Of a DNA stretch of 64,000 bases, positions 1 through 52,772 are shown piece after piece. The position numbers were made by a program, and so were the translations under genes. This DNA is from an uncultured Candidatus Saccharibacteria bacterium. GTDB lineage: Bacteria > Patescibacteriota > Doudnabacteria > UBA920 > VMFF01. Numbering within the stretch: the stretch's first letter is position 1; each line of letters begins with the position of its first letter. The notes under the pieces were generated by a model. That model worked only from the letters and a program-made list of their open reading frames with translations. It did not search any database and had not been told where the DNA came from. The stretch covers positions 3,800 to 67,799 of the forward strand of contig CAYIKZ010000002.1 of NCBI GenBank assembly GCA_964364285.1, given 5' to 3'.

Positions 1-304
1 CTTTGAATTGTATTTAAATGATAATGGTGTTTACCCTCAATACGGAACAGCAGGAACAGAATATGATTTAAGCACAGCAATGGCAAATGCAAACCCTGCT
101 CCTTTGGTTCCAGGATATGTTAGTCAAGTACCAACAGACCCTGCACTTGCTGCACAAAATCATCCGTATAGATATGTTACAGATGCAGGGGGAAGAAACT
201 TTGGTTTAGGAATATATTTTGAAGGGGACAATGCATATTGTAAGTATCGCAGTGCTGGTGGACTTGTAACTTGGTTTTCTAGCGCACCTGACTGTGTTAG
301 ATAA
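1..304 (+). CDS. Type IV pilin / pseudopilin-like protein, 5'-partial (N-terminal helix lies upstream of the window)
   Basis: The frame is open from nt 2. It contains the pilin-type motif LYLNDNGVYP and a GspG/pilin-like C-terminal region, ending ...SAPDCVR. Confidence 0.5.
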   Translation, partial: FELYLNDNGVYPQYGTAGTEYDLSTAMANANPAPLVPGYVSQVPTDPALAAQNHPYRYVTDAGGRNFGLGIYFEGDNAYCKYRSAGGLVTWFSSAPDCVR

Positions 305-308
305 CAAA

Positions 309-333
309 AGCACCGTAGCTAACGGTGCTTTTT
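309..333 (+). terminator. Rho-independent terminator after the pilin gene
   Basis: Stem gcaccgt / acggtgc with a 5-nt loop, followed by TTTTT. Confidence 0.6.
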
Positions 334-379
334 AAAATACTACTTATCAAATTTTGGAAAGTGTGAGTATCAATAATTT

Positions 380-1207
380 TTAATCGTTGTTTTCCGCTTT
401 GTTAGTGCTTTGATCACTTTGGTCTGAGGAGTTTGAACCTTGAGTATTTTCTTTTTCATCTGTCTCCTGTAACTCCTTGGTTTCTTCTGCTTCTTCTGCT
501 TCCTCTACCTCTTCAGCTTCTTGTTCTTCTTTTTGCTCAAGCTCTTCTTTTTTCTGATCATCTTCACTCATTTCTTCTTCTATGTTTTCCTGTTCGTTTT
601 GAAGAGAATCTTCAAGCTGATCCTTTTTCTGTTCAAGCGTGTCAATCTGTCCATCAATATCCTTAAGCTGTGCTTCCAATATCGCTATCTGTGTTGTGTT
701 TCCGATGCGACGTGCCTCTGTAAGAAGATTTGTCTTGATTTCTTTACGTTGTGCTTTTAGTTGGTCTTTCGCTGCTTTAAAAGTTTCCTCCAAAATTTTG
801 TCTCGCAAGTCAAACTCATCGTTCAATGTTTTGGCAAGAGCTGATACATCTTTGCCAGATGTTTTTTCTTCATTAACTATTTCTGCGGCATATGCCACAT
901 TAGCTTTAAGAAGCGACTCAGCTATTGCAAGCCCCTTAGCATTAACACCTTTTTTCTCAACCATTATCTTAATTTCCGCAATTCGCTCTCCTGCAAATTC
1001 AATTTGCAATTTAGCTTTTGCCTCGGGATTAAAGGTAAAGAATTGACGAAGATTTTCGCCTAAACGATCAAGGAAATAGAAAGGGCTTGCCGGAGTTAGA
1101 CCTGCTGACGGAAGCGTGACTTGTGTGTTTTGTGCAAAAGCAGTTCCCGTTACTGTTGCAAACAAGGTCACTAGTGCGAAGATGCTAGATACGAATATTT
1201 TTTTCAT
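380..1207 (-). CDS. Secreted coiled-coil protein with a highly acidic (E/D-rich) C-terminal tail
   Basis: 275-aa ORF with an N-terminal signal peptide (MKKIFVSSIFALVTLFATVTGTAFA). It has long heptad-like K/E/Q-rich segments and a poly-E tail. Confidence 0.55.
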   Translation of the reverse strand: MKKIFVSSIFALVTLFATVTGTAFAQNTQVTLPSAGLTPASPFYFLDRLGENLRQFFTFNPEAKAKLQIEFAGERIAEIKIMVEKKGVNAKGLAIAESLLKANVAYAAEIVNEEKTSGKDVSALAKTLNDEFDLRDKILEETFKAAKDQLKAQRKEIKTNLLTEARRIGNTTQIAILEAQLKDIDGQIDTLEQKKDQLEDSLQNEQENIEEEMSEDDQKKEELEQKEEQEAEEVEEAEEAEETKELQETDEKENTQGSNSSDQSDQSTNKAENND

Positions 1208-1297
1208 AGATATTTTGTTAGATTATTAAATTATTTAATACTTGCTGTATTAGTATAGCATAATAGCTCTGCCGTTATGGATATAGTTGAGCCTATT

Positions 1298-1330
1298 TTG
1301 TTTTTCAAGCGCACCAGATTGTGTTAGATA
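1298..1330 (+). pseudogene. Remnant of a pilin gene 3' end (copy of nt 272-304)
   Basis: About 30 bp near-identical to the last codons plus stop of the upstream pilin gene (FSSAPDCVR*). No upstream ORF body. Confidence 0.45.
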
Positions 1331-1378
1331 ACTAAAATACCGCAAACGTGGCATTTTAGAAAATATTTTATTATAGTT

Positions 1379-1615
1379 TTAATTTTTTATGCCGAAGAAA
1401 ATATATTCCTTATTGCAAGACGATTCAATGTAATCAATTTGTTCTTGAAGGGCAATCAGATCAGATCTCAATTCTGGAACAATCAAAGTTGGTAAAGCAT
1501 CCACTGAGTTATGAATACAGGTAAGTTTTCGATCCATTTTACCTATTTGCCATTGCAATGCGAACAAAAAAACTATTCCAAAAAATATCCAAGTGTAAAT
1601 GTGTGATTTTTGCAT
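1379..1615 (-). CDS. Small membrane protein (hypothetical)
   Basis: 78-aa ORF with one clear hydrophobic helix. Confidence 0.35.
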   Translation of the reverse strand: MQKSHIYTWIFFGIVFLFALQWQIGKMDRKLTCIHNSVDALPTLIVPELRSDLIALQEQIDYIESSCNKEYIFFGIKN

Positions 1616-1630
1616 GTCGGATTTATTAAA

Positions 1631-2194
1631 TTATGTTTTTAAATTGTCGACCTTTGCTCGTAATTCATCGTCTAATAGTGAATATATTTCAGGTGCAATT
1701 TTCTCTTTAGAGGGGAGTATTTTCAAAAATTCATTTTGCAATATTTCTTTTACATCTTTATCTAAAAGATTATTCCAATAAATCACTGGTTGGATTAGCG
1801 CCATCGTTGCCATTGCTCTTCTTTCTTCATTGGCATTTTGTAAAGTTCGCAAAGCATCGTTAATTAATTTTCGCAACCAAGCTTCTTTTCCTTCGCTCGG
1901 ATGTTCTTGGCAAACTACATATTCCACCAACGCCTCAACTGAATCAGGATCATTCATTAATAGAAATGGTGCAAGCTCCGACCAGACAAAGGGTTCTTGT
2001 TTCGGGATACCGGCTGCTATATATCGAGTCGATAGTGCGCCATAGAGACCAGCCAGGTGAGGCGTTGTGTCGCCATTTAACGGAATCTTTCCTTGTTGTG
2101 CTGCAAGAAGATGTTTTTTGTATGAAGCGCGCATCGATTCCCTCGTTGCGTCGGCACTCCCTAGATGATTTAAAACTTCATTTAGTAAGCTCAT
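1631..2194 (-). CDS. Hypothetical protein
   Basis: 187-aa ORF with host-like composition. No motif recognised. Confidence 0.45.
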   Translation of the reverse strand: MSLLNEVLNHLGSADATRESMRASYKKHLLAAQQGKIPLNGDTTPHLAGLYGALSTRYIAAGIPKQEPFVWSELAPFLLMNDPDSVEALVEYVVCQEHPSEGKEAWLRKLINDALRTLQNANEERRAMATMALIQPVIYWNNLLDKDVKEILQNEFLKILPSKEKIAPEIYSLLDDELRAKVDNLKT

Positions 2195-2266
2195 ATGATC
2201 AAAATTTTCTTTCCCTTGTTAATACTAATTAGCCATTGAGATAGATAGATCGATGTTTTTCTTTTT

Positions 2267-2353
2267 TGGTGCCCTGGGTGGGACTTGAACCCACACGGGA
2301 TTACTCCCATACGTACCTGAAACGTACGCGTATGCCAATTCCGCCACCAGGGC
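2267..2353 (-). tRNA. tRNA-Leu (anticodon CAG), class II with a long variable arm
   Basis: Manual fold: 7-bp acceptor, D arm GCG/CGC, anticodon stem TACGT/ACGTA, loop TTCAGGT, variable hairpin GGGA/TCCC, T arm GTGGG-TTCAAGT-CCCAC, ACCA end. Confidence 0.85.
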
Positions 2354-2359
2354 AGGAAA

Positions 2360-4120
2360 CTATTTCAGATCTCTACCGGTTTCTAAATACCAGTGATTTA
2401 CATCATAGAAGCGATCTTCTGGATTTGCAAGCACCTTGATGTTAATCCCTTTTACATCAGGGCGCATCTCATAAACAAAAACGCTTTGGTCCAGGATTAT
2501 TGCAGGCAGGTCGTATGAGAAAATATCCTGAAACTGTTTGTAGAAACCATCTCTAGTTGAACCATTAAAAGTTGTTCTTGCATCAGCAATAATCTTGTCG
2601 ATTGTTAAGTTCTTGTATTGAGCAAGATTAACTCCAGGGTTGTTACTCTGAGATGAGTGCCAGAATATAAATGGGTCTGGGTCGTAGCCACTGCTTTCTG
2701 CAAAGAGTAAAGCTTCAAAATTTCTTGTACGCAAGTGATTTTTCTCAAACTCTGCGCTTGCAACAACATTAACATTAATATTCAACCCTATCTTAGACCA
2801 TTGCTCTTTCAAAGCCTCGGCACTTTTAACATTCAAAGAAAAGTCATTTGTAGTGATTGTAAATTGCAATGCATCTTTTCCTCTAAAGCGCATTCCAGAA
2901 GAATCTTTTTTCCAACCGTCTTTTTCCAAGATTGCATTTGCTGCTTCCAAGTCAAAAGAGTTTTTCTGAGTAACACTTTGATCATAACCAATCTGTCCAG
3001 GAAGAATCGGTGTGTACGCGGGCAGTGCCATTCCTGCATATACATCCTTGATGAAAGATTCTCGGTTGATGCTCTTTGCAAGCGCTTCTCTAACAGCGTG
3101 ACTTCCCAAAGCTTTGTTTTTGCTAAGGTTAAAGAACAACGCTTGATACTGGTTTACAGGGATTTGTAAGATATTTAACTTTGTATTCTTTGGGTCAACA
3201 AAAATCTTCTTGTCAAAAGGAATGAAGCCGATTGAATCAACCTCCTTAGTGTGTAGTCCTGAAATCATGTCTTGGTTGGTTTGGTAGAACTTAAGAGATA
3301 CTTCGTCTATATATGCTTTGCCGTTTGCATAATTAGAATATGACTCTAAGAGAATAGATCTAACAGTTCCGTTTGGTAATTTGTTAATTTCTTTAACAAA
3401 ATATGGACCATTGCCAACAGGTTCTAGATTGTATTTAGCAATGTAGAAGTTTTGAGGGGGGACATTTTGCCAAATGTGTTTTGGAAGAATTCCAAGAGTT
3501 AAGTTAGTAACAAAAGGAGCGGAAACATTCTTATTTGTAAACTTAATAGTTAAGTTATCAATCTTTTCTGCAACAATGCTGTTCCAAAGTGCATGTACTG
3601 GGCTCTTGTAATCAGGGTTCTGGATTGTTTGAATGGTAAAAATAACGTCATCTGCAGTAATTGAATGTCCGTCATGCCATTTTAAATTTGGTTTTAAAGA
3701 AATGGTGTATTGTTTCTGGTCATCAGAAAGCTTAAAGTTTTCAGTGGCTAAATCAGGAACAATATTTCCTTGATTGTCATACTTGTATAGTCCTGAAAAA
3801 ACAAGCCTTGTTAAATCTTTGTCAGTTTGAGTTTGAGCAAGTAGGGGATTAATAAAGCGTGGTTCTCCAACCATACCTTCACTGTAACTACCACCATTTG
3901 CAGGTACAACAACAGTGTTTGCAGAATATAAACCAATGCTTAACAACAACACATCTATGATTATTAAAGCAAGGAGGGAAAAGATCCAAATCTTTTCTTT
4001 TTTGCCAAACATCTTAAAGATAGGGGTAAGATGCTTAAACTTAAAAGAACGCAGATTTCTAATCCCGCGTCCAGTTCTCTTAAGTTCAGTTATTGAGTTT
4101 TCTAACAACATTTTTTCCAA
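2360..4120 (-). CDS. ABC transporter substrate-binding protein, family 5 (peptide/nickel type), membrane-anchored
   Basis: 586 aa with an N-terminal TM anchor and family-5 SBP-like sequence throughout. An alternative start at 4012 is possible. Confidence 0.75.
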   Translation of the reverse strand: MEKMLLENSITELKRTGRGIRNLRSFKFKHLTPIFKMFGKKEKIWIFSLLALIIIDVLLLSIGLYSANTVVVPANGGSYSEGMVGEPRFINPLLAQTQTDKDLTRLVFSGLYKYDNQGNIVPDLATENFKLSDDQKQYTISLKPNLKWHDGHSITADDVIFTIQTIQNPDYKSPVHALWNSIVAEKIDNLTIKFTNKNVSAPFVTNLTLGILPKHIWQNVPPQNFYIAKYNLEPVGNGPYFVKEINKLPNGTVRSILLESYSNYANGKAYIDEVSLKFYQTNQDMISGLHTKEVDSIGFIPFDKKIFVDPKNTKLNILQIPVNQYQALFFNLSKNKALGSHAVREALAKSINRESFIKDVYAGMALPAYTPILPGQIGYDQSVTQKNSFDLEAANAILEKDGWKKDSSGMRFRGKDALQFTITTNDFSLNVKSAEALKEQWSKIGLNINVNVVASAEFEKNHLRTRNFEALLFAESSGYDPDPFIFWHSSQSNNPGVNLAQYKNLTIDKIIADARTTFNGSTRDGFYKQFQDIFSYDLPAIILDQSVFVYEMRPDVKGINIKVLANPEDRFYDVNHWYLETGRDLK

Positions 4121-4122
4121 TG

Positions 4123-4353
4123 CTATTTTTTAACTAAGACAACTGCTAATCCTAATCCCACAAAGGCAATTGCTAATATGATAGTAAAGTAGAAAAGCCA
4201 CTTTTCAAACCCACGTTTTGTTCTGTAAATCGCATCCCCACCACCAAACACACCAGATAGCCCAACCCCTTTGCTTTGGGAAAGGATTACAGCAGTAAGG
4301 ATAACCCCAACCGCTATTTGTATTAAGCTTAGTATTTTTTGTAAATTAGTCAT
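4123..4353 (-). CDS. secG: Preprotein translocase subunit SecG
   Basis: 76 aa with two TM helices and a central GKGxGL...FGGG motif typical of SecG. Confidence 0.7.
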   Translation of the reverse strand: MTNLQKILSLIQIAVGVILTAVILSQSKGVGLSGVFGGGDAIYRTKRGFEKWLFYFTIILAIAFVGLGLAVVLVKK

Positions 4354-4399
4354 GCGAAAAGTATATCAAATAAAGGGTTTTGCGGTCAACGATGCTTTT

Positions 4400-6178
4400 T
4401 TAGAGGTTTTCTAACAGATCCTTAGCAGTCTTTTCACCTAAGATTGAAACTAGTTCCTTTTTAGACGCTTTCTTCATACCCCCCACTGACCCAAATCTTT
4501 GAATTAAGAGCTTTTTCTTTTTTGGACCAATCCCAGGAACTTCATCAAGCACTGATTTGTATGCTTGTTTAGATCTAAGCTTCTTATGGAAGGTTATTGC
4601 AAAACGATGTGCTTCATCTCTTAACCTTTGTAGTAGCTGCAAGGCATGGTTTGATTTTGAGAGAATAATTGAATTAGATTTTCCAGGAACAAAGATTTCT
4701 TCCTCTCTTTTTGCAAGACCAATAACTGGAATTTTAAGCTTGTACAAAGAAAGCACTTTCACAGCAACACCAAGTTGTCCTTTTCCTCCATCAACAATCA
4801 AGAGGTTAGGTAGAGGCCATTTGTGTTCAGCACTGTTTTTAAATCTTCTAGTTAATGTTTCTTCCATCATTGCAAAATCATTTGGTCTCCCATCATTTTT
4901 TATCTTAAACTTCCTGTACTCTGATTTTTTAGCTTTTCCACCTTCAAAGACAACCATGCTCGCAACTGAGTTTGTTCCTTGGATATTTGAAATATCAAAA
5001 CATTCAATACGGAATGGAGTTTCAGAAAGCTTCAAAACTTTCTTTAGTTCATCTAAAGCAAGTGTTGTTCTAGAAAGTTCAGTTGCTTGACTGGTTGCCC
5101 ATGACTCAAAATACTCTTGGGCATTTTCAATTCCCATCTTGATAACCTCGGCTTTTTTTCCAATCCTTGGCTTTGTAATCTTAATCTTTCTCCCTGAATT
5201 TAAAGTCATAACCTTAGTCAAAGCAGAAAGCTCCTTTGGTATTTGCTGGACAAAGATTTCCTTAGGAAGATTTGTTGCTTGAGAATAATAGTTTTCTAAG
5301 AAAGCAGAGAATATTTCTTCTTCAGCTTTGTTTTCAGTGTTTTCTAAAATGAAATTTTTTCGGTCATTTAACTTCCCATTTCGTATCACAAAAACATTAA
5401 TAGTTGCTTTGTCGGTACTTTGAAAACACGAAACAAAATCCCACGAAACCTTTTGGGTGAAAATGACTTTTTGACGTTCTTCAATAATGAGGAGAGATTG
5501 CAATTGATTCCTAAGCTCTGCCGCTCTTTCAAATTGCTTAGTTTTAGAAGCTTTGAGCATTTGTGCTTGAATTTCTTTTTTAATTTCAGAAATATGTCCG
5601 CCTAAGAACAAGACAATCTTTTGAATTGTTTTTTCGTATTCTGAAAGAGATATCTTTCCAACGCAAACACCAGGACATTGATGGAGGAAGTAATAGAAGC
5701 AGGGGCGATTTGAAACCTTCTTATTTGCACAATATGGGAAAACTCTTCTTAAGATATTAAGAGTCTCCTTTATTTTCATAGCAGAGGAATATGGTCCAAA
5801 ATACTTCGCGTTTTTAGAATCCGGATTTCTTACTGAATATATCTGCGGAATTTCAGTTTCATAGTCAATTTTAATATATGCATAGTTCTTGTCATCTCGA
5901 AGCATGACATTGTACTTTGGTTGATGCTTTTTGATCAGTGTGTTTTCAAGCATCAAAGACTCAAGCTCATTGTCTGTAATGATGTAATCAAAATCAACCG
6001 CATCATTAACCAAAAAAGGTATTTGTGGGCGGTTATCGTGCCCATCAAAATATTGTCCAACTCTTGATTTCAGGTTTAGAGCCTTTCCAATATATATGAC
6101 AGCACCTTGTTTGTTCTTAAACAGGTAAACCCCTGTTTTCTTGGGCGTATTTCGTAATTTAACCTTGACCTTGTCCAT
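4400..6178 (-). CDS. uvrC: Excinuclease ABC subunit C (UvrC)
   Basis: Full-length UvrC (GIY-YIG, UvrC homology region, C-terminal HhH). The ORF-track start at 6340 runs into the GC-rich island; the ATG at 6178 (MDKVKV...) fits the composition change. Confidence 0.9.
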   Translation of the reverse strand: MDKVKVKLRNTPKKTGVYLFKNKQGAVIYIGKALNLKSRVGQYFDGHDNRPQIPFLVNDAVDFDYIITDNELESLMLENTLIKKHQPKYNVMLRDDKNYAYIKIDYETEIPQIYSVRNPDSKNAKYFGPYSSAMKIKETLNILRRVFPYCANKKVSNRPCFYYFLHQCPGVCVGKISLSEYEKTIQKIVLFLGGHISEIKKEIQAQMLKASKTKQFERAAELRNQLQSLLIIEERQKVIFTQKVSWDFVSCFQSTDKATINVFVIRNGKLNDRKNFILENTENKAEEEIFSAFLENYYSQATNLPKEIFVQQIPKELSALTKVMTLNSGRKIKITKPRIGKKAEVIKMGIENAQEYFESWATSQATELSRTTLALDELKKVLKLSETPFRIECFDISNIQGTNSVASMVVFEGGKAKKSEYRKFKIKNDGRPNDFAMMEETLTRRFKNSAEHKWPLPNLLIVDGGKGQLGVAVKVLSLYKLKIPVIGLAKREEEIFVPGKSNSIILSKSNHALQLLQRLRDEAHRFAITFHKKLRSKQAYKSVLDEVPGIGPKKKKLLIQRFGSVGGMKKASKKELVSILGEKTAKDLLENL

Positions 6179-6254
6179 ATCGCTATTATATAGTATATTT
6201 TTTAGCTGTGTCCTAGCAGTATTCCCATGGGTCTCTTCCTCAGGAGGACCAAGC

Positions 6255-6752
6255 ATGCCAAACAGCAATGGGGCTGAGACTCTGGTTCGAGTGACTGAGA
6301 AGTATAATAGTCTTCTCGAAACTCTCGATCGGGAGATCAACAGCGCCCGACAGCTGGATGGTTTCAGGCTCTACTCGATGTACACCGGGCAGATGGAGTT
6401 CGTTGTCAGAGAGGTGGGAGTGCTTCGGTCATACCACACTGACGACGATAAGATTGTCCGTTATTGGTGGGCGATCAAGCAGCTTACCACGCTTTTGCAC
6501 AAGCTGGAGGCTGCTCAGCTCAAATTCTTGAAGGACCGGGCGCATATTTTGCCGCAGAAGTTTTTCCGTTTCCGGCGTCGCGTTCTGCAAGACTCTGGAC
6601 ACTCGCATCTGATACAGCTGACAAAGGAGTGCGCACACTGGGTGCACATCTTCGCCCGTGCTGCGAACAGCCCCAATGCAACAGTGTATAGGCTCCGACC
6701 GCAGCTGGTTGGAATCCTGACACGGATGCAAGATATACAAACCAGACTTTAG
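6255..6752 (+). CDS. Hypothetical protein encoded in GC-rich island 1
   Basis: 166 aa from an ATG preceded by GGAGG. GC-rich codon usage unlike its neighbours. No recognised domain. Confidence 0.5.
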   Translation: MPNSNGAETLVRVTEKYNSLLETLDREINSARQLDGFRLYSMYTGQMEFVVREVGVLRSYHTDDDKIVRYWWAIKQLTTLLHKLEAAQLKFLKDRAHILPQKFFRFRRRVLQDSGHSHLIQLTKECAHWVHIFARAANSPNATVYRLRPQLVGILTRMQDIQTRL

Positions 6753-6819
6753 AATAGGAGGAAATAACAGGAAGAGTTTTTCAGTTCACGTTGCGCGTAG
6801 TCCTCACACAGGAGAACCG

Positions 6820-7011
6820 ATGGCACGTATGAGAGCGTACTGGGATTCCGGATTTGACAACGCCGCTCGCCACAAGAAGAGCAAGGGAGAAGCCCGTCGT
6901 CGTCGGGAAGATCCCGACGCACAGGCGAAGCAAGTGGCGGCGCAGATCGCCACGCTTGCTCGCAAGAACGCGGTTGGATCCCGTTCCTCGCTGCTGCACA
7001 TCAAGCAGTGA
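6820..7011 (+). CDS. Small basic protein encoded in GC-rich island 1 (hypothetical)
   Basis: 63 aa, Arg/Lys-rich, AGGAG 5 nt upstream of the ATG. Confidence 0.35.
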   Translation: MARMRAYWDSGFDNAARHKKSKGEARRRREDPDAQAKQVAAQIATLARKNAVGSRSSLLHIKQ

Positions 7012-7139
7012 GCTTCCTGAACACAACAGCCACCACCTTGGGTAACACCAAGATGGTGGCTGGTTCATTCCTCATGGCTCCTTGACCGGAGCTTGACATC
7101 GGGTGTATACTTTTTCTTACTTTGTTTGTAATAAAAGGT

Positions 7140-9965
7140 ATGATAAAGATACGAGGTGCAAAACAGCATAATTTGAAGAATATTAACTTGGATTTACCAA
7201 GTAATAAGCTTATCGTAATGACAGGACTTTCCGGCTCAGGGAAGTCTTCTTTAGCGTTTGATACCATCTATGCGGAAGGACAGCGTAGATATGTTGAGTC
7301 GCTTTCAGCGTATGCAAGACAGTTTTTGGGGTTAATGGATAAACCTGATGTTGAAAGCATTGAAGGTCTTTCTCCAGCAATTTCAATAGATCAGAAAAGC
7401 GCATCACATAATCCTCGTTCAACAGTTGGAACTGTTACTGAAATATATGACTATCTCCGTTTACTCTATGCAAGAGTAGGTGTGCCACACTGTCCTGTTT
7501 GTGGAAAGAAAATCTCCGGACAAACAGTTAGCCAAATGATCGATCAACTTTCAAACCTCCCTCATGGATCAAAGATAATCCTGATGGCTCCGTTCATCAA
7601 AGATCAAAAAGGAGAACACAAACATGTTTTAGAGGAAGCAAAAAAAGCAGGGTATGCCAGAGTCAGAGTCGATAGTATAGTTATGGATTTAGATGAGGCT
7701 TTAAGATTAAACTTAGATAAAAAGAAGAAACACTCAATTGAAGTTGTAATTGATCGTATTACCATAGACAAGGATGAGCGTGGAAGACTTGCTGATTCTT
7801 TAGAAACAGCCTTGGAGTTAGGTGATGAAACAGCCATTGTTCAGTTAGCAGACAATTCTAGTAAAGAAATTTTACTTTCTCAGAAATTTGCATGTCCAGA
7901 AGGGCACATGAGCATGCCAGAGTTAGCACCAAGAAACTTTTCTTTCAATTCACCACACGGTGCTTGTCCTGAATGTACAGGTTTAGGAACAAAATTAGAA
8001 ATTGTTCCAGAACTAGTCATACCAAATCCAAAACTTACCTTAGCAGAGGGAGCAATTCGTCCTTGGAGCAAAACTACATCTCGTATTTCATGGTATACAA
8101 GGATTCTACAAGCAGTTGCTGATGAGTTTGGTTTTTCAATGGATGTTCCAATTTCAAAACTTCCTAAATCAGCGGTTGATATAATTCTGCATGGAACTGG
8201 AGAAAAAAAGATCTCAGTAGAACATGGGGAAGATGATTTTGAATATGATTACAACACCACATTTGAAGGTGTAATTCCAAACCTTGAACGTAGATACAGA
8301 GAAACTGATTCTGATTACATGCGCAGAGAAATTGAAAACTACATGCGTATTACTGAATGTCCTGTTTGTTTTGGAAAGAGATTAAAACCAGAGGCTCTTG
8401 CTGTGACAGTTGTAGACAAGGGAATTGTTGATGTTTCAAAAATGAGCATTGATGATGCTGAACTTTTCTTTAGAGACTTAAACAAAAAACTTTCAGAGAA
8501 AGACAAAAAGATTGCATATCAAATATTAAAAGAAATTAGCGCAAGACTTTCTTTCCTCAAAGATGTTGGTCTAAACTATTTAACACTTGATAGAAGCGCA
8601 GACACTCTTTCCGGAGGAGAAGCACAACGTATTCGCTTAGCAACACAGATTGGTTCTGGTTTAACAGGTGTTTTGTATATCTTAGATGAACCATCAATTG
8701 GTTTACACCAAAGAGACAATGACCGTTTACTAAAAACCCTTAAAGGATTAAGAGATTTAGGAAACACAGTCATTGTTGTTGAACATGATCAAGATACCAT
8801 TGAGTCATCTGATTGGGTTGTTGATATTGGACCAGGCGCAGGTAAGCATGGTGGAGAAATCATTGCAGAAGGAACACCAGCACAAATAAAGAAGAACAAG
8901 AATTCAATAACAGGGCAATATCTTTCTGGTGTTGAGAAAATAGAGGTGCCAAAAAGAAGACATCCTGGAAACGGTAAGAAACTAAGCATCATAGGAGCAG
9001 AAGAGCATAATTTAAAAAATATTAATGTTGATCTTCCTCTTGGTAAATTTGTTGTTTTAACTGGTGTTTCAGGTTCAGGTAAATCAACCTTGCTTAATGA
9101 AATTCTTGCAAAAGCTCTTTCAAACTATTTCTACAACTCAAAAGAAGCAGTTGGTAAACACAAGAAACTTCAAGGTGTTGAACACATCGACAAGGTAATA
9201 AACATAGATCAATCACCAATCGGAAGAACACCAAGATCAAACCCTGCGACATACACAGGCGTTTTCACATATATTAGAGATCTCTTTGCTGCAACTCCAG
9301 AAGCAAAAATGCGAGGTTACAAAGCTGGTAGATTCTCCTTCAATGTTAAAGGAGGTAGATGTGAGGTTTGTGGTGGTGACGGAGTTATTAAAATTGAGAT
9401 GCATTTCTTAGCTGATGTCTATGTTGCTTGTGAAGAATGTAAAGGTAAGAGATACAACAGAGAAGCTTTAGAAATACATTACAAAGAAAAAAATATCTCT
9501 GATGTTTTAGAGATGACAGTTGATGAAGCAAAGACTTTCTTCAAACATATCCCATTAATCTACAAGAAACTAGAAACACTTTCAGAAGTAGGTCTTGGTT
9601 ACATGCACCTTGGTCAGCAAGCAACAACTCTTTCTGGTGGAGAAGCACAGCGTATAAAATTGTCTGCAGAACTTTCCCGTGCATCAACAGGGAGAACACT
9701 CTACATCTTGGATGAACCAACAACAGGATTGCACTTTGCCGATGTTAAACGACTCCTTTCAGTTTTAAACAAACTTGTTGAAAAAGGAAACACAGTCGTT
9801 GTCATTGAACACAACCTTGATGTCATAAAAAGCGCGGATTGGGTTATTGACCTAGGTCCTGAAGGCGGGGACAAGGGCGGAGAATTAATAGCCGCCGGAA
9901 CCCCTGAAGATGTGTCGAAGATAAAGAGAAGTTACACAGGACAATATCTAAAAAAGATGCTTTAA
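7140..9965 (+). CDS. uvrA: Excinuclease ABC subunit A (UvrA)
   Basis: Two ABC ATPase modules with zinc fingers and the conserved N-terminus [17 protein letters not shown] 7140 with AAAGG is preferred over the TTG at 7122. Confidence 0.95.
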
Positions 9966-36261: not shown

Positions 36262-36678
36262 ATGAAACAAAAACAAAAACGAAAAATGAAAACAAAGACT
36301 AAAGTCTATCAATCAGACGCGCACATTATTATGCCGTTGTTAGTTGTTGCTTTAGCAGCAAACCTTTTCTTGTTTGCTGTATCATATAGCAACGCATCTT
36401 TCTACGGCGAGGAGCGCGCATTCCCTGACCTCTTTGGTCCTGCTCAAATTTCACAGAATTTAGACCAGGTCATAAACAAAGTGGTTTTTAATGTTCAAGA
36501 TTCCTTAAACTTTGTTGCTACCGAAATAAAGCCAGCGGTAGTTGCATTTATGGGACTTGATGAATACCATTATGGTTCATCAAGACAAACTGCTTTAGCA
36601 CCACAAGTGCAGAGTTACACTCAAGGAGCAGTACTTGGTGCGATGTATTACAACCCAGCATATTTTGTTGGACAATAG
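36262..36678 (+). CDS. Hypothetical membrane/secreted protein
   Basis: 138 aa with a basic N-terminus followed by a hydrophobic helix. Confidence 0.4.
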   Translation: MKQKQKRKMKTKTKVYQSDAHIIMPLLVVALAANLFLFAVSYSNASFYGEERAFPDLFGPAQISQNLDQVINKVVFNVQDSLNFVATEIKPAVVAFMGLDEYHYGSSRQTALAPQVQSYTQGAVLGAMYYNPAYFVGQ

Positions 36679-36816
36679 AGAGTAGATGATCTGCGCGATG
36701 GGAGCTCGGATCGAATCTAGACGGAGGGTGCAGGGATAATTTTAAGCAACAATTCAAAACAAAGAACGCAACGGACTTCTACGCAAACCGAGGCGTTTTT
36801 TGTTTGTCCAAAGGAT

Positions 36817-36845
36817 TTGGCAAAACCCGTACCTTATGTTAATTT
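36817..36845 (+). promoter_or_regulatory. Promoter TTGGCA-17-TAATTT (extended -10) upstream of GC-rich island 3
   Basis: Same architecture as the promoters at 25762 and 52773. Confidence 0.4.
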
Positions 36846-36915
36846 TATATGTCGCGGTACATGCCGTGATACAAGTAGGTTCACAGTCTGACACGGAGGA
36901 CTCTTGGACAAACTG

Positions 36916-37620
36916 ATGTTGCTTAACCGTATGGTGTTGGCTCTTGACGATATGGAACCGGATCAGATCGGTGAGCTGATCGCTGCACTTGCTCACAATG
37001 ATCTTCTTCCATGGTCGTTCAAGGTCAACGATCGTTGGGTCGAGAGTGGAAAGCAGACGGTACCGATGTTGCGTCTTGCGGCCGGCGGTGCTCACGTCAG
37101 GGTGCTCGCAGACCTGAAGCTCAGCGACACCCCCAAGACCATGAGCGCAAGCGCGAGGCGGGTGCGCGAGGCGGGTGCAGTTGCACTCACAATCCATGCC
37201 AGCTGCGGCCTTGATTCCATCAAGGCTGCGCTTGAGCACGGTCCAGCGGAGATCATTGCTGTGACCTTGCTCACCTCGATCAATCGGATGAACTGCCTGG
37301 CGCTCTACGGGCGTGAGCCGATTGAGCAGGTCAAGATCTTTGCCAAATACGCGCTCGAGAGCGGGGTTGGCAATCTGGTCTGCTCCGGGGAAGAAGTCGC
37401 GACGCTTCACGAGATGTACCCTGGCATCGGTCTGCTGGTTCCCGGTGTTCGTATGCCGGGTAGCGACCTTCGGGGTCAGAAGCGCATCACTACGCCATGG
37501 GATGCTTTCAACAACGGTGCAACGCGCATCGTTGTCGGAAGCGAAGTCACGATGGCGAAGGACCCAGTGGCTACGTTCGAGAATCTGCTCGCGGAAACTG
37601 AGAAGCACGTGGAGTTCTGA
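36916..37620 (+). CDS. pyrF: Orotidine-5'-phosphate decarboxylase-family protein (PyrF-like), GC-rich
   Basis: LALDD near the N-terminus, K-L-S-D-T-P-K-T (OMPDC KxxDIPNT-like) and C-terminal RIVVGSEV. ATG 36916 is used; a TTG at 36904 is possible. Confidence 0.65.
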   Translation: MLLNRMVLALDDMEPDQIGELIAALAHNDLLPWSFKVNDRWVESGKQTVPMLRLAAGGAHVRVLADLKLSDTPKTMSASARRVREAGAVALTIHASCGLDSIKAALEHGPAEIIAVTLLTSINRMNCLALYGREPIEQVKIFAKYALESGVGNLVCSGEEVATLHEMYPGIGLLVPGVRMPGSDLRGQKRITTPWDAFNNGATRIVVGSEVTMAKDPVATFENLLAETEKHVEF

Positions 37621-37640
37621 CACCAACCGGAGGAGGAAGG

Positions 37641-38336
37641 ATGATAGTAACTGGGGGAAGGTGGCAGAACGAAGCTGTGACAAGCTTCCTAGACTCCCTC
37701 TGGGCCTTTGGCGCCATCATGGGCGTCGACAAGTCGCCAGAGGGCAAGGGGTTTCGGCTTGCGCTTCACGAGCGTAACCCAGATGCCCCACTCTCGCCGT
37801 TCTACTTCAACCTGCGGCGGGTCCAGTCGCACCCGGCGACCCTGTACATGGCAGCACAGATGATGAGGGAGAAGATCATCGAGGATATTGATGGTGGTGC
37901 TTTCCAACTCATCGCCGGCATTCCAACTGCCGGTACACCGTTTTCGACAGCCTTGTCCCTGCTGATGCATCGCGGACAGGTGTCGCCGCGGATGCAGGCG
38001 AAGGGGCACGGGGTTGGTGATCTCGTGGATGGTGACTTCCATGACGGGCAGACCGTTCTGTTGGTCGACGATCTGATCACCGAGGCTGATTCCAAGCTTC
38101 GTGCGATCGACATCCTGCAGCGCGCCGGTCTCATCGTTCAGAATATCGCCGTCCTGATCGACCGGGAACAGGGCGGCAGACAGCGGCTTGAGGCTGCTGG
38201 GTACAAGGTTCACCCCGTCTTCACGGTCACTGAAGTCTTCTCCTACTACCTGGCTGCTGGTGAATCCACCCAGTCCGCCTACGACCAGATCGTGGAGTAC
38301 CTCGACCGCGAAGCCGAGAAGCACGCGAACCAGTAA
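37641..38336 (+). CDS. pyrE: Orotate phosphoribosyltransferase (PyrE-like), GC-rich
   Basis: PRPP-binding motif VLLVDDLITEADS and DREQGG. N-terminal PyrE-like flexible loop. Strong RBS GGAGGAGGAAGG. Confidence 0.75.
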   Translation: MIVTGGRWQNEAVTSFLDSLWAFGAIMGVDKSPEGKGFRLALHERNPDAPLSPFYFNLRRVQSHPATLYMAAQMMREKIIEDIDGGAFQLIAGIPTAGTPFSTALSLLMHRGQVSPRMQAKGHGVGDLVDGDFHDGQTVLLVDDLITEADSKLRAIDILQRAGLIVQNIAVLIDREQGGRQRLEAAGYKVHPVFTVTEVFSYYLAAGESTQSAYDQIVEYLDREAEKHANQ

Positions 38337-38509
38337 CAAACAATCGACAAGAGGAAAAACCGTCCCTGGAGGAGGACGGATGAAAGAAACAGGCTATGGC
38401 TCTGGTGCAGATTTTGTACCAGAGCCTGCTGTTTTTTAGTGATTGTGGATAAACTTGATTTAGTTGTTTAAAAAGGTTGAAATTATTGGATTTTTGATAT
38501 ATTTGCCTA

Positions 38510-39149: not shown

Positions 39150-42100
39150 ATGAGTGAAAACTTACAAATCAGAACCAAGAACGCACTATCCGAACTCGGA
39201 GAAAAAATCTTTCTAGATCGTTATGCAGTTAAAGATGCTAAAAAAGAAACATTGGCAGTAGGAGATACTGTTGTCATCAATGTTAATTTAAAAACAGGAC
39301 AGAGAGAAATTGGAACAGTTAAGGAAGTTGATAGGTTTAGCAAACAAGTAGAAGTAACCTTGCGCGATGGCACAGTAGAGAAACGCGCAATAGAGCATGT
39401 AGACAAACCTTTGGAAACAGTTCCTGAACAAATGTTTGAGCGCATAGCTCGTCATATTGCAAGCGTTGAGAAAACTCCAGAAAAACAAAATGAATGGCAG
39501 GGGAAATTTAGAGAACTAATGGATGACTGGAAATATGTTCCAGCAGGAAGAATCTTTACTGGTGCAGGAACCGGTCAAAACCTAACTTTTTACAACTGCT
39601 ATGTCATACCATGTCCTCAGGATTCTCGTGGTGGTATTTTTGACACACTCAGACAAATGGCAGAAATCATGTCCCGAGGGGGCGGTGTTGGTATAAACGT
39701 ATCTACGTTGAGACCAAGATACGCATATGTTAAAGGTGTTAATGGAAGATCCTCTGGTTCTGTTTCCTGGGCTTCTTTGTATAGCTTTGTTACAGGTTTA
39801 ATTGAACAGGGTGGTTGTTTTGGACCGAATGAAAGAATTGCAACCAATGTTGGTTTGGTTCCTGCAAAAGAATTGGCTGACCGTGTTGAAGCAGGTGAAG
39901 CAATATACGCCCAAACCCATAAAGGTATGCGCCGAATAACAGCTAAATTCAGAAATGGCGTGAAAGAACTTTATGAAGTAACAACTGAGCGTGGATTTAG
40001 CACCGAGATAACAGCAGATCATAAGGTTGCAGTACTATTAAACGGCCGAGTTGAAACAACTGCTTTAAAAAATTTGAAGCAAGGAGACGACATCTTGTTG
40101 TTGCTTGGCAATGCTACTGGTCAAAATTATGTGTCGCTTAAGAAAAGTGATTACAAGCGTTCTGTAATGAGTACGACCTTAAATACTGATGTTCGTCTTC
40201 CTGAAATGCTCAATGAAGATTTGGCATACCTTGTTGGATATATGTTGGGTGATGGATATGTGAGTTGGGGTAAAAAAGTAAATTGGTCTGCTCCTAAAGC
40301 TGTTAAAATGGCAACCGCCGATGCATACCCTGAAATTCGTCAGAGAATTGTTGATGCGATCCAAAATCTTTTTGGTGTTGATGCAGTAATTGAAAAAGGC
40401 GACGGTGCTTGCCAAAACGTTTCTTTGTATTCTCGCATTGTAATTGAGTGGCTCTTAGAAAATGGTTTACTCAAATCTAAAGCAAAAGATATTCGTGTGC
40501 CAGAAAGCATTTTTCGCTCACCGACCAGCGTGACTGGGTCATTCATAGCCGGGTATTTTGACGCTGACGGTTGCAACCGTGGAGCAAAGGGTGGTTATGG
40601 TATTGACAGCATAAGTCGTGAAATGCTCACAGACGTGCAACAGCTTTTAGCTGCAAACGGTGTCTTGTCTGCTATTCGTGCAACTGATCGAACAGAACAA
40701 GGTTGGCAAACAATCTATCGTTTAAGTGTTACTGGAAATCAATTTAAAGAGCGTTTTGCGGATTTGGTTTCTACTGCCAAGCGTTCTGACTTCAATGGCA
40801 AGCGCGATATGTTTAATACTTACCCGTCAGAAATTTTAGCTGCTGTCGGTGTGCGTAGCAAGGACCGTCAGGGAATCTATGATGGCACATCTCCGCAGGT
40901 TTCTTTTAATCAACTTGTACACATCCAAAAACGTTTGAATACTGTCGAACAATATTCTGCCGCCCAATATCTTGATGACATCATGCACACCATTCCTGAC
41001 ACGATTACCGCAATCAAATCGGTTGGTAAAAGCGATGTTTATGACTTTGAGGTTGAAGATGTCCATTTGCTCAGCGGTGGTGGTGTTTACACTTCAAACA
41101 GCAGAAGAGGCGCTTTAATGCTCATTCTAAACGTTTGGCATCCTGATATTGTTGATTTCATTAATGCAAAGAGAGAAGCTGGAAAAATAACTAACGCGAA
41201 TATTTCTGTTGGTATTACTGATGATTTTATGGAAGCAGTTAAAAATGATGCTGACTGGGATTTGGTTTTCCCAGACACATCAGATCCTTTGTATCAATCA
41301 GAGTGGGCTGAGACACAAGGTGATATTAAAGCATGGCAAAAACTTGGTGGTAAAGTCGTTGTTCATAAAACAATGAAAGCAAAAGAAATCTGGGATCAAA
41401 TCATTTCCTCAGCATGGTCTTCAGCAGAACCTGGTGTTTACTTCATTGATCGCGCAAACTATCTTTCAAATTCTTACTACTACGCAGCATTGCCTTGTAC
41501 CAATCCTTGTGGTGAACAACCACTTCCTGCTTGGGGTGTTTGTAACCTAGGACATGTTAATCTTGCAAAACATCTTACAAACAATGAAGTTGATTGGCAG
41601 AAATTAAAAGAAACAGTAAGATACGCAGTTCGTTTCCAGGACAATGTCATAGATGCAACACCATACTTCTTTGATGAGAACTTTAAACAACAAATGTCTG
41701 AAAGAAGAGTTGGTATGGGAACAATCGGACTCGCAGAAATGTTAATTAAATTAAGAATTAGATATGGCAGTGATCAAGCAATTCAATTCATCGACAAACT
41801 ATATCAATTCATTGCAGTTACATCTTACGAAACATCAGTAGAAATCGCTCGTGAAAAAGGATCTTTCCCTCAATTTGATGCTGAAAAATTCTTAGAAAGC
41901 GGATACATGAAAGCAATGCCTGAATATATTCGTTCATTAGTAAGACAATACGGTGTAAGAAACGTAACAATAATGACTCAGGCACCAACTGGAACAATCG
42001 GAACAATGGTTGGAACATCAACAGGAATTGAACCATTCTTCTCATGGACATACTTTAGAAAGAGCAGACTTGGTGTTCATGAAGAAAAGATTAAACTAGC

Positions 42101-43106
42101 TCAAGACTGGTTGGATCAAAATCCAGGACAAGAACTTCCAGAATACTTTGTTACTGCAATGAGCCTTGCTCCTGAAGACCACGTTAGAGTTCAGGCAGCA
42201 GTTCAACGTTGGACAGACTCAGCAATTTCAAAGACCTGTAATGCCCCTTCAAACTACACTGTAGAAGACACTAAAAAGCTATACCAGATGATGTATGACC
42301 TTGGTTGCAAAGGTGGAACCATTTACCGTGATGGTTCAAGAGATGAACAAATCTTAGCAACAGATGCAAAGAACCTTGGTAAAGATGTTCAGGAACAACT
42401 AGAGGCAAAAGCAAAGATTGAAACACAAGTAACTCAAATTGTTCAAGAAGGACAAGATCTCTTACAAATTGGTGACCACAAGTTCTTGGTTAAAAAACTC
42501 ATTCAAAACGGAACTAAATTTGAAGTTGTACCAAGGGAACGTCCAATTGAGATGCAAGGAACAACATACAAATTAAATACGCCGTATGGTTCGCTCTTTG
42601 TAACCATAAACGAAGATGAGCATGGACCATTTGAAGTCTTTGCACAGCTTGGTAAAGCTGGTGGTTTTTTCGCAGCTCAATCAGAAGCTCTATGCAGAAT
42701 GATTTCCTTAAGTTTAAGATCAGGCGTTGCTGTAGAGGAAATAATCAAACAGTTGAAGGGAATTAGAAGTACTGAGGTTGCATTTAACCAAGGCGAGATA
42801 ATTTATTCATTGCCTGATGGTATTGCAAAGACCATGGAAAAGCACATCAATCGCAAACAGCAAAGCTTACAACTCCAATTCAAACAAGCAGAACCAGCAA
42901 AACTCGATTTAAAAGAAGAAGTCAAAATGACAGTTTCAGAAGGACCGGTAGAAGTAAGTTCTGTTGCGGAGTTTCAGCCTAAACAACAAAAGGTTTCAAT
43001 GGCAGACTATGGTCATGCGCCGGTTTGTCCAGATTGTTCTTCAATGCTTGTTATGGCAGAGGGATGTATGAAATGTGATGTCTGCGGATATTCTAAGTGC
43101 GGTTAA
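39150..43106 (+). CDS. nrdJ: Ribonucleotide reductase, adenosylcobalamin-dependent (class II-like), containing an intein
   Basis: RNR catalytic motifs (NPCGE, C-terminal CxxC...CxxC tail). nrdR is upstream and a cobalamin adenosyltransferase gene downstream. 1318 aa including the intein. Confidence 0.85.
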   Translation: MSENLQIRTKNALSELGEKIFLDRYAVKDAKKETLAVGDTVVINVNLKTGQREIGTVKEVDRFSKQVEVTLRDGTVEKRAIEHVDKPLETVPEQMFERIARHIASVEKTPEKQNEWQGKFRELMDDWKYVPAGRIFTGAGTGQNLTFYNCYVIPCPQDSRGGIFDTLRQMAEIMSRGGGVGINVSTLRPRYAYVKGVNGRSSGSVSWASLYSFVTGLIEQGGCFGPNERIATNVGLVPAKELADRVEAGEAIYAQTHKGMRRITAKFRNGVKELYEVTTERGFSTEITADHKVAVLLNGRVETTALKNLKQGDDILLLLGNATGQNYVSLKKSDYKRSVMSTTLNTDVRLPEMLNEDLAYLVGYMLGDGYVSWGKKVNWSAPKAVKMATADAYPEIRQRIVDAIQNLFGVDAVIEKGDGACQNVSLYSRIVIEWLLENGLLKSKAKDIRVPESIFRSPTSVTGSFIAGYFDADGCNRGAKGGYGIDSISREMLTDVQQLLAANGVLSAIRATDRTEQGWQTIYRLSVTGNQFKERFADLVSTAKRSDFNGKRDMFNTYPSEILAAVGVRSKDRQGIYDGTSPQVSFNQLVHIQKRLNTVEQYSAAQYLDDIMHTIPDTITAIKSVGKSDVYDFEVEDVHLLSGGGVYTSNSRRGALMLILNVWHPDIVDFINAKREAGKITNANISVGITDDFMEAVKNDADWDLVFPDTSDPLYQSEWAETQGDIKAWQKLGGKVVVHKTMKAKEIWDQIISSAWSSAEPGVYFIDRANYLSNSYYYAALPCTNPCGEQPLPAWGVCNLGHVNLAKHLTNNEVDWQKLKETVRYAVRFQDNVIDATPYFFDENFKQQMSERRVGMGTIGLAEMLIKLRIRYGSDQAIQFIDKLYQFIAVTSYETSVEIAREKGSFPQFDAEKFLESGYMKAMPEYIRSLVRQYGVRNVTIMTQAPTGTIGTMVGTSTGIEPFFSWTYFRKSRLGVHEEKIKLAQDWLDQNPGQELPEYFVTAMSLAPEDHVRVQAAVQRWTDSAISKTCNAPSNYTVEDTKKLYQMMYDLGCKGGTIYRDGSRDEQILATDAKNLGKDVQEQLEAKAKIETQVTQIVQEGQDLLQIGDHKFLVKKLIQNGTKFEVVPRERPIEMQGTTYKLNTPYGSLFVTINEDEHGPFEVFAQLGKAGGFFAAQSEALCRMISLSLRSGVAVEEIIKQLKGIRSTEVAFNQGEIIYSLPDGIAKTMEKHINRKQQSLQLQFKQAEPAKLDLKEEVKMTVSEGPVEVSSVAEFQPKQQKVSMADYGHAPVCPDCSSMLVMAEGCMKCDVCGYSKCG
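39816..41099 (+). mobile_element. Intein with a LAGLIDADG homing-endonuclease domain inside nrdJ
   Basis: Begins with Cys after ...EQGG. Two LAGLIDADG motifs (LAYLVGYMLGDGYV, FIAGYFDADGC). Block G VYDFEVEDVHLL...VYTSN, followed by the extein SRRGALM. Confidence 0.75.
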
Positions 43107-50859: not shown

Positions 50860-51711
50860 ATGCTAGCTGAACAAATATTAAAAACCATAAAATATTTCGA
50901 TGTTCAAAACCACCCTTTGACGCTTTTAGAGATACATAAATATTTGCTTGCAGACAAAGGAATAAAAGCAACAATTTCAGAAATACTAACAATCCTAGAA
51001 ACAGATCTTAAAGACAAAATTCAAACTTCAAATGGTTTCTATTATTTAACAGGCCGTAGTGAAATTTCAGAACAAAGATTAAAAAACAACATCTTTGCAA
51101 CCAAACGGTTAAAAAGAACAAAAAAATATCTTTCAAAAATTAAATACATACCATTCATAAAAGGTCTTGCTGTTGGTGGTTCTGAAGCAATCACCAACTC
51201 AAGAGAGACAAGCGACATTGATATCTTTGTTTTAACTAAACCAAATAGGATTTGGTTGGCAAGACTTTTCCTAAGCGCATACTTTCAAATATTTGGAGTC
51301 AGAAGACATGGCAAAAAAACAGCCAACCGTTTTTGTTTAAACCACTACATTGAACAAGGGAAACTACTTAACAGAGAACAGCATATATATTCAGCAGTAG
51401 AATATATATCTTTAATTCCATACTTTGGAGGAGAAGAAATCTATGAGTTTCAAACGGCAAATCTAACTTGGATTAGAGAATACTTAGCTCAACCACAGAT
51501 TGTCAGATACACAACACCAAAAGCAGCGAAGATAACAGAGATATTTGAAAAGATGCTACAGAATAAACTCGGAGACTTTTTAGAAGAAATATCAGGTAAA
51601 TTTCAGACAAAAAAAATACACCTTCAGGATAGTATAGTGTTAGAAAAAGACGAGCTTGTTTTCCACCCAGGAAATAAGGGGAGACAAGTCATGAGTAAAT
51701 TTAACCCTTAA
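50860..51711 (+). CDS. Nucleotidyltransferase-fold protein (pol-beta superfamily, putative)
   Basis: GGSEAITNSRETSDIDIF matches GS...DxD. ATG 50860 immediately follows the upstream stop. Confidence 0.5.
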   Translation: MLAEQILKTIKYFDVQNHPLTLLEIHKYLLADKGIKATISEILTILETDLKDKIQTSNGFYYLTGRSEISEQRLKNNIFATKRLKRTKKYLSKIKYIPFIKGLAVGGSEAITNSRETSDIDIFVLTKPNRIWLARLFLSAYFQIFGVRRHGKKTANRFCLNHYIEQGKLLNREQHIYSAVEYISLIPYFGGEEIYEFQTANLTWIREYLAQPQIVRYTTPKAAKITEIFEKMLQNKLGDFLEEISGKFQTKKIHLQDSIVLEKDELVFHPGNKGRQVMSKFNP

Positions 51712-51720
51712 ACGAACCGA

Positions 51721-51757
51721 GGCCCCGCAGACAAAAATAGTCTGGGGGCCTCACGAG
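51721..51757. terminator. Long GC hairpin
   Basis: gaggccccgcagac-aaaaata-gtctgggggcctc. Confidence 0.45.
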
Positions 51758-51760
51758 GGT

Positions 51761-51931: not shown

Positions 51932-52036
51932 AGTCCCTCCTGCGATCCCTCGCAGGTTGAAGTGGTGCTGCGTGATACTGCGTGGGGTTTCATTGCATAT
52001 TGCCACATCTGTTTTAAAAAATCAAGCGCAACAAAA

Positions 52037-52732: not shown

Positions 52733-52772
52733 TACTGTTTTATTCTAGCACTTTTGGATCCTCTGTGGAGGG

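Follow-up and report, generated by a model that had tools for sequence, protein, structure and literature searches.

The window analysed here is a stretch of 64 kb of DNA from a bacterium of the Candidatus Doudnabacteria, which are groundwater Patescibacteria and belong to the ultra-small bacteria of the candidate phyla radiation (CPR). Its gene content includes the housekeeping genes expected of a Patescibacteria/CPR bacterium. The nearest relatives that bear names are ‘Patescibacteria group bacterium H41-bin257_1’, whose UvrC protein is 95% identical, and ‘Candidatus Doudnabacteria bacterium Gr01-1014_77’ (91%). The subject of this report is Island 1, an islet of ~0.9 kb with a high guanine-plus-cytosine (GC) content, located between the divergent genes uvrC on the minus strand and uvrA on the plus strand. 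The islet contains two open reading frames (ORFs), p165 and p63, both on the plus strand and 67 nucleotides (nt) apart (Table 1). Its mean GC content is 54.1%, compared with 35.4% and 39.0% in the two flanks and 38.8% in the whole window. Along the sequence, the GC profile rises from ~35% to 51-61% over the islet and then falls back to 39%, and the change in composition is abrupt at both edges. The islet is a genuine feature and carries two genuine protein-coding genes. A preliminary description of this stretch had placed here a GC-rich block, a protein of 166 amino acids, a protein of 63 amino acids rich in arginine and lysine, and ribosome-binding sites of the form GGAGG/AGGAG. These were borne out, except for one length: the plus-strand p165 ORF is real and encodes 165 amino acids, and 166 codons are obtained only if the stop codon is counted.

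The p165 ORF is 165-167 amino acids long in all relatives, with 40-58% amino acid identity to the window copy and 44 invariant positions. The ratio of nonsynonymous to synonymous substitution rates (dN/dS) is 0.11-0.39. It begins at ATG 6255 and ends with a stop codon at 6752, and its Shine-Dalgarno site, AGGAGG, is located at 6242-6247, 7 nt before the start. AlphaFold2, given eight sequences of the family, predicted a confident five-helix bundle, with a predicted local distance difference test score (pLDDT) of 89.4 and a predicted template modelling score (pTM) of 0.80. The helices in the model span residues 10-31, 41-59, 63-112, 117-138 and 144-164. The net charge of the protein differs among alleles, with isoelectric points (pI) from 6.8 to 10.0. 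We also considered a form of p165 extended to 203 amino acids from a TTG codon at 6141. This form was rejected, since the extension is not conserved in the relative L008 and the Shine-Dalgarno site precedes ATG 6255. Within the population, three positions inside p165 (6369, 6511 and 6543) differ in the contigs L003 and L005, all from C to A. Both contigs are thinly covered, and the differences may be sequencing errors.

The p63 protein contains 15 arginine and lysine residues and has a pI of 11.25. Its length is 63-65 amino acids in the relatives, with amino acid identities of 70-94% and a dN/dS of 0.19-0.44. The structural model of p63 is of low confidence (pLDDT 65.5) and shows two helices with disordered ends; the protein is read as disordered for the most part. 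Judged by how their lengths and substitutions have been constrained, both p165 and p63 evolve as coding sequence and are evidently real genes. One sublineage (L086, L087 and L091; positions 10499-10662 in L086) has deleted p63 and retains only its last six codons (LLHIKQ) with the stop codon, the hairpin downstream and the uvrA promoter; uvrA and uvrC are intact in this sublineage. This deletion shows that p63 is dispensable. An uncalled p63 variant of 61 amino acids is present in L190 (628-900) and L191 (572-830). In this variant the N-terminal half is different (MEGSLHWEYFHRRLAR...), with conservation in the C-terminal half (...QVAAQIAEHARRNA...SSLLHIKQ). The stop codon of p165 is followed at once by a Shine-Dalgarno-like element, AGGAGGAAATAACAGGAAG, that has no start codon behind it. 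All lineages have kept this element, even the one without p63, and it may serve as a standby site for ribosomes or in regulation.

Database searches with p165 and p63 found nothing in Pfam, PHROGs, NCBIfam, PADLOC or the PDB sequences, and the PADLOC defence-system models gave no match to the islet proteins at an expectation value (E) ≤ 1. Viral contigs likewise gave no match, and the window holds no paralogue of either protein. Profile searches with word-indexed HMMER of 5.8 billion clusters returned only 8 clusters of p165 and 4 of p63, all from this clade. An exhaustive HMMER search of 1.84 billion representatives recovered the family itself and one marginal match to a coiled coil in a protein of 1676 amino acids (E = 6e-5), which we regard as compositional. 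In total, about 15 billion proteins were covered, and no homologue of either protein was found beyond the clade. Foldseek searches of PDB and BFVD with the p165 model gave nothing at E ≤ 0.001, only generic helical bundles at E ≥ 0.2. We found no paper on p165/p63 or on GC-rich islets in Doudnabacteria, and members of the family are named ‘hypothetical protein’ in GenBank. The two proteins are thus, by these searches and the predicted structure, a new protein family pair confined to one clade, and p165 is confidently predicted to have a novel helical fold. Two ‘hypothetical’ ORFs can in this way be recognized as real, clade-restricted genes.

The cassette is not restricted to one assembly or one strain. 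Five contigs, each from an independent assembly (Logan and the European Nucleotide Archive; Hainich groundwater), encode exactly the same p165 and p63 and are 99.8-100% identical to the window across both junctions. Every relative recovered carries the same cassette at the same site with the same GC excess. These relatives include L006 and L110 (UvrC 95-96% identical), L008 and L192 (91%), L111 (86%), L086, L087, L089 and L091 (85-90%) and L007 (81%), as well as L190 and L191. The closest outgroup that we found in metagenomes, L112 (UvrA 75% and UvrC 48% identical), also has uvrA and uvrC back to back, and its spacer of 215 nt contains no gene and shows no similarity to the cassette. Of 171 loci that match UvrC or UvrA, only those of the island clade and L112 have the two genes back to back. 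In L184 the two genes are divergent and ~2.6 kb apart; elsewhere, wherever both genes are on one locus, they are co-directional. The uninterrupted spacer of L112 agrees with the preliminary description in that the island splits the spacer between uvrC and uvrA. The recent insertion that it implied is wrong: all sampled members of the clade carry the cassette, which is fixed and old within the clade. On this distribution, the insertion event predates the clade radiation.

The cassette shows none of the hallmarks of a mobile element. Pfam, PHROGs and NCBIfam identified no transposase, integrase or recombinase gene in either ORF. A search of 6100-7200 for terminal inverted repeats or a target-site duplication revealed only the terminator hairpin and short repeats at chance level. 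There is no second copy of the cassette in the window, and uvrC and uvrA flank it in every genome examined.

In each of the four lineages tested, the GC content at third codon positions (GC3) is 0.59-0.68 for p165 and p63 and 0.26-0.36 for uvrC and uvrA. At four-fold degenerate sites the GC content (GC4) is 0.50-0.64 in the islet versus 0.17-0.25 in the host. The polarised third-position changes in p165, from singleton-parsimony counts that are biased and noisy, comprise 65 changes from G/C to A/T versus 27 in the reverse direction, and the implied equilibrium GC3 of p165 is 0.32, which is the host value. This bias and this equilibrium fit slow amelioration of foreign DNA. The amelioration of horizontally acquired DNA is a concept said to go back to Lawrence and Ochman in 1997. 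Taken together, these observations make it probable that Island 1 is an anciently acquired, fixed and still-ameliorating orphan cassette, as a structural and evolutionary description. The donor would have been GC-rich and the transfer would predate the radiation of the clade, with amelioration still under way. GC-rich islets in a CPR genome can then be old and fixed, and still compositionally foreign.

Island 1 shares several properties with known ameliorating islets of orphan genes, namely a GC3 of 0.6-0.7 against 0.3, strong ribosome-binding signals, a restricted range, absence from the outgroup and third-position changes biased toward the host composition. It differs from them in having no mobility genes, repeats or tRNA target and no identifiable donor, in its very small size, in a position fixed across the whole clade, and in a GC content at the upper limit of neutral decay.

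Several points weigh against an ancient foreign origin. The case for it consists of the composition, the strong Shine-Dalgarno sites and the absence from a single outgroup. The database searches found no donor lineage and no homologue in any GC-rich organism. Loss in L112, instead of gain in the clade, would be a formal alternative. The composition itself also poses a problem. We calibrated a two-state decay model on the four-fold sites of the flanks for the time since the split between the window and L007, the deepest in the clade. The model is crude (two states, saturated distances, 30-80 sites per gene) and sets a ceiling on the present GC4 of the islet of 0.54 if the ancestor was 100% GC and of 0.48 if it was 85% GC. 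The observed islet GC4 is at or slightly above this neutral ceiling. Plain amelioration is therefore only just sufficient and fits only with an extremely GC-rich donor or a slowed decay.

In one respect p165 departs from its surroundings. The window and L006 are 91-93% identical in nucleotide sequence through uvrC, the promoter block, p165 codons 1-31, p63 and uvrA. In the block that comprises p165 codons 32-165 and the spacer behind them, 37% of the positions are mismatched, compared with 7-9% in the flanks (Fisher p = 2e-49). The synonymous divergence (dS) between the two genomes is 1.18 for codons 32-165, compared with 0.10 for codons 1-31, 0.15 for p63 and 0.22-0.28 for uvrC and uvrA. None of the other sampled alleles is a closer match to the window block. 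The sharp contrast in mismatches indicates that the block is an allelic replacement by recombination within the cassette, with an unsampled member of the island-bearing group as the donor. The body of p165 in the window is thus a far more divergent allele that has recombined into a background otherwise ~95% identical.

The window probably contains at least five GC-rich islets of this type, Island 1 among them. The other four are 56-61% GC, and their genes have strong Shine-Dalgarno sites and terminal hairpins; the Shine-Dalgarno signals of islet genes are stronger than those of neighbouring genes. No DNA is shared among the five islets. The GC3 of genes across the window is bimodal, with values of 0.23-0.38 for ordinary genes, 0.58-0.72 for islet genes and nothing between. 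Islets 2 and 3 occupy corresponding positions in relatives. In islet 3, pyrF and pyrE (36904-38336) are 61-74% identical in nucleotide sequence to those of L092, L096 and L099, compared with 94-96% for the adjacent nrdR, whose protein is identical. The islet genes therefore diverge far beyond neutral drift at the rate of core genes; pyrF, for instance, is 61% identical between genomes in which nrdR is 94% identical.

These properties bear on the alternative that the GC content is actively maintained, by selection on nucleotides, by GC-biased repair at a hot spot or by repeated import into fixed slots. Such maintenance would account for an islet GC4 that stays at or above the neutral ceiling in every lineage since the deepest split, for the gap in the GC3 distribution, and for the divergence of the p165 body and of pyrF relative to their neighbours. 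The implied equilibrium GC3 of pyrE and pyrF (0.54-0.57) and of p63 (0.51) also favours it. The G/C-to-A/T excess in p165 and its host-like equilibrium are instead what plain amelioration predicts; the decay model is crude, and the parsimony counts are noisy. We consider active maintenance unlikely, although it is the strongest competitor of an old and still-ameliorating acquisition. A more specific proposal, that position-fixed slots hold GC-rich, hyper-divergent genes whose composition is held away from that of the genome by a non-neutral process such as recurrent allelic import or GC-biased repair, with p165/p63 as a hitherto unknown pair of proteins that serves in conflict or regulation and undergoes balancing or diversifying exchange, appears somewhat less likely still. 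If GC retention and hyper-divergence were non-neutral and general over the islets, they would provide a natural test of amelioration theory and would be informative on recombination in ultra-small symbiotic bacteria.

The arrangement of signals around the two genes suggests an expression unit. Here the promoter sites come from a consensus scan combined with conservation, so that the promoter, operon and leaderless readings are made at the level of consensus. A promoter-like site for p165-p63 matches the consensus at 10 of 12 positions, and its -35 box lies inside the first uvrC codons. It overlaps a block of 30 nt (6182-6211) that is invariant in five lineages and contains two overlapping -10 boxes, TATAGT on the plus strand and TATAAT on the minus strand. 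The latter (6185-6190) is perfect and belongs to a promoter-like site for uvrC; it ends 6 nt upstream of the uvrC ATG at 6178, and uvrC has no Shine-Dalgarno site. The short distance suggests that the uvrC mRNA is leaderless. At the other end of the islet, a stem-loop with arms of 15 base pairs is kept in seven lineages, including the one in which p63 is deleted, and three of its pairs have changed on both sides. This stem-loop is inferred to be a terminator or a 3′ stabiliser located upstream of the uvrA promoter. It is followed by the conserved uvrA promoter, the best promoter-like site before uvrA, and the conserved 5′ untranslated region. p165 and p63 are thus adjacent on the same strand between one predicted promoter and one predicted terminator. 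They would be transcribed as a two-gene operon from their own sigma-70-like promoter, back to back with the probably leaderless uvrC promoter, and uvrA would keep its own promoter downstream of the stem-loop.

Our proposal for the function is tentative. The cassette may be a non-essential, strain-variable accessory module in which p165 makes protein-protein contacts and p63 is its nucleic-acid-binding partner. Its role might be in genetic conflict (with phage or host, or toxin-antitoxin-like) and not in excision repair itself, but this is a guess. The arrangement resembles type II toxin-antitoxin systems and comparable two-gene conflict modules in several ways. It consists of two small co-oriented genes with their own predicted promoter and terminator, one product is strongly basic, and one partner can be lost while the other shows allele replacement and high divergence. 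It differs in that the genes are 67 nt apart and do not overlap, and in being single-copy at a fixed locus. It also shows no similarity to toxin, antitoxin or defence families and no recognisable DNA-binding antitoxin fold; searches for toxin or antitoxin similarity in Pfam, NCBIfam and PADLOC, and by sequence and fold in PDB, were negative.

The main functional rival to a conflict module is a role in nucleotide excision repair or the DNA-damage response, in which p165 and p63 would modulate or accompany UvrA/UvrC, for instance as a regulator specific to the lineage or a DNA-binding accessory factor. The cassette does always lie between uvrC and uvrA, its predicted promoter overlaps that of uvrC in the invariant block, and the strongly basic character of p63 is common among nucleic-acid binders. 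However, all occurrences are in one clade with conserved synteny, and therefore the linkage to the uvr genes is a single evolutionary event. Moreover, neither protein resembles a known repair or regulatory family or fold, one lineage has lost p63 with uvrA and uvrC intact, and the outgroup does without the whole cassette. We consider a link to repair improbable.

The remaining alternatives concern how the islet arose and whether it codes for protein. The two genes could have arisen de novo from a GC-rich non-coding spacer. They have no homologues in the databases searched, and long ORFs arise readily where the sequence is GC-rich. The sister L112 (JGI C687J35021_10010316, 1-5498) is itself GC-rich, with a GC content of 52-56% and a uvrA GC3 of 0.65 that matches the islets; this indicates a large genome-wide shift in composition between fairly close CPR lineages. 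Against a de novo origin, the spacer of L112 is short and unrelated to the cassette, so well packed a five-helix bundle, with 44 positions invariant, would be unusual in a gene that arose de novo only recently, and the same composition is found in islets with genes as clearly old as pyrF and pyrE. We regard it as very unlikely.

A GC-rich island in an AT-rich genome is classically a structured non-coding RNA. Island 1 shares with GC-rich structured RNA genes its intergenic position in an AT-rich genome, and it would fit a large structured RNA that long ORFs are present in several frames on both strands, as accidents of low stop-codon density, and that the stem-loop is conserved. It differs from such genes in its coding signal: synonymous change exceeds non-synonymous change two- to ten-fold, the ORF lengths are kept despite the sequence divergence of both proteins, the Shine-Dalgarno spacing is right and p165 has a confident predicted fold, while the lengths of the antisense ORFs vary among relatives. 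Rfam gave no match at its gathering threshold, nor for 5900-7400 at E ≤ 1. The structured-RNA reading is thus rejected as highly improbable. A recent mobile-element insertion or a chimeric assembly, which the abrupt compositional edges might suggest, is hardly credible, given identical junctions in five independent assemblies, the same site down to 81% UvrC identity, and searches that revealed no transposase, integrase, terminal repeats, target duplication, second copy or viral-contig match.

Table 1. Features of Island 1, its flanking genes and the other GC-rich islets, in window coordinates.
Feature	Position	Strand	Basis
GC-rich islet (Island 1), whole	6215..7090	none	Composition profiles
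p165, 165-amino-acid orphan protein, predicted five-helix bundle	6255..6752	+	Conserved ORF, dN/dS, AlphaFold2, no homologue outside the clade
p63, strongly basic protein of 63 amino acids	6820..7011	+	Conserved ORF, dN/dS; Shine-Dalgarno site AGGAG at 6810-6814
Hyper-divergent block, p165 codons 32-165 and spacer	6348..6809	+	Mismatch contrast with L006, dS
Shine-Dalgarno-like element AGGAGGAAATAACAGGAAG, directly after the p165 stop	6756..6774	+	Conservation
Promoter-like site for p165-p63 (TTGACC, 18 nt, TATAGT)	6165..6194	+	Consensus scan, 10/12 matches; overlaps invariant 6182-6211
Promoter-like site for uvrC (AGGACA, 18 nt, TATAAT)	6185..6214	-	Consensus scan; invariant block 6182-6211
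Stem-loop closing the predicted operon, 15-bp arms	7027..7062	+	Inverted repeat, conservation
Promoter-like site for uvrA (TTGACC, 18 nt, TATACT)	7082..7111	+	Consensus scan; conserved in all relatives
uvrC, true coding sequence, 592 amino acids, MDKVKV start at ATG 6178	4400..6178	-	Pfam domains, orthologue alignment, public gene calls
Spurious stretch of 54 codons by which the naive uvrC ORF runs past the true start, antisense to the 5′ end of p165	6179..6340	-	ORF list; not conserved
uvrA, 941 amino acids, start MIKIRGAK	7140..9965	+	Orthologue identity; public calls begin at the same ATG
Islet 2, encodes an orphan protein of 309 amino acids	25971-27061
Islet 3, carries pyrF (orotidine monophosphate decarboxylase) and pyrE (orotate phosphoribosyltransferase)	36631-38451
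Islet 4, GC-rich	51651-52031
Islet 5, GC-rich	52751-53311

The islet also affects how the start of uvrC is read. The naive uvrC ORF begins at TTG 6340 and encodes 646 amino acids, 54 codons more than the 592-residue form that begins with MDKVKV at ATG 6178. The additional length is an artefact, owed to the scarcity of stop codons in GC-rich DNA. In the 592-residue form, the Pfam GIY-YIG domain occupies residues 15-90, the UvrC RNase H and HhH domains are also present, and the alignments to distant UvrC orthologues begin at query residues 1-12. The in-frame extension is 54 codons long in the window and L006, 28 in L008, 26 in L111 and zero in L007, and its sequences are unrelated; between the window and L006, the DNA of the extension is ~95% identical. 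The alignments and domain positions thus indicate that the true uvrC start is ATG 6178 and that the 54-codon extension is spurious. This agrees with the preliminary description, which had the naive ORF reaching 54 codons into the island and proposed MDKVKV as the start; a long GC-rich N-terminal extension shared by the orthologues was not found. That description also expected automated annotation to give a chimeric UvrC. This risk was overstated, as the gene calls on public contigs of the organism and its relatives already use the 592-residue start. Fixing the start at ATG 6178 is nonetheless a gain for annotation. On the other side of the islet, uvrA is 95-99% identical among relatives and 75% identical in the outgroup L112.

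A sequence motif at the 3′ edge of the islet had been reported at 7071-7085 and was said to recur near other unusual loci. The motif, CATGGCTCCTTGACC, is in fact located two bases further on, at 7073-7087, and contains the -35 box (TTGACC) of the predicted uvrA promoter. It does not occur elsewhere in the window with up to 2 mismatches, and its 11-nt core is also unique with 1 mismatch allowed. The 8-mer CCTTGACC has exact matches in the window only at 6163 and 7080; 1.4 matches are expected by chance, and the pair is not significant. The copy at 6163 supplies the -35 box of the promoter predicted for p165; relatives do not conserve it. The claim of a recurring motif is unsupported, because CATGGCTCCTTGACC is unique and the two matches of CCTTGACC are within chance.

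The uvrC/uvrA junction also coincides with a switch in gene orientation and a minimum of the cumulative GC skew (about 5500-6500). A replication origin near 6 kb was considered and dropped, because no cluster of DnaA boxes is present there. Elsewhere in the window, a gene on the plus strand (39150-43103) encodes a ribonucleotide reductase large subunit of 1318 amino acids that contains an intein with a LAGLIDADG homing endonuclease. In L092, L096 and L099, which are close relatives, the gene lacks an intein and encodes 890 amino acids; the intein is therefore polymorphic within the clade. Islet 5 contains an in-frame unit of 48 nt (53030-53125) in two copies that are 88% identical, encoding the peptide DGSGQQGIDKAPATQS. 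An in-frame tandem repeat with a period of 21 nt and at least 6 copies is present at 56361-56570, in a gene near 56.3 kb.

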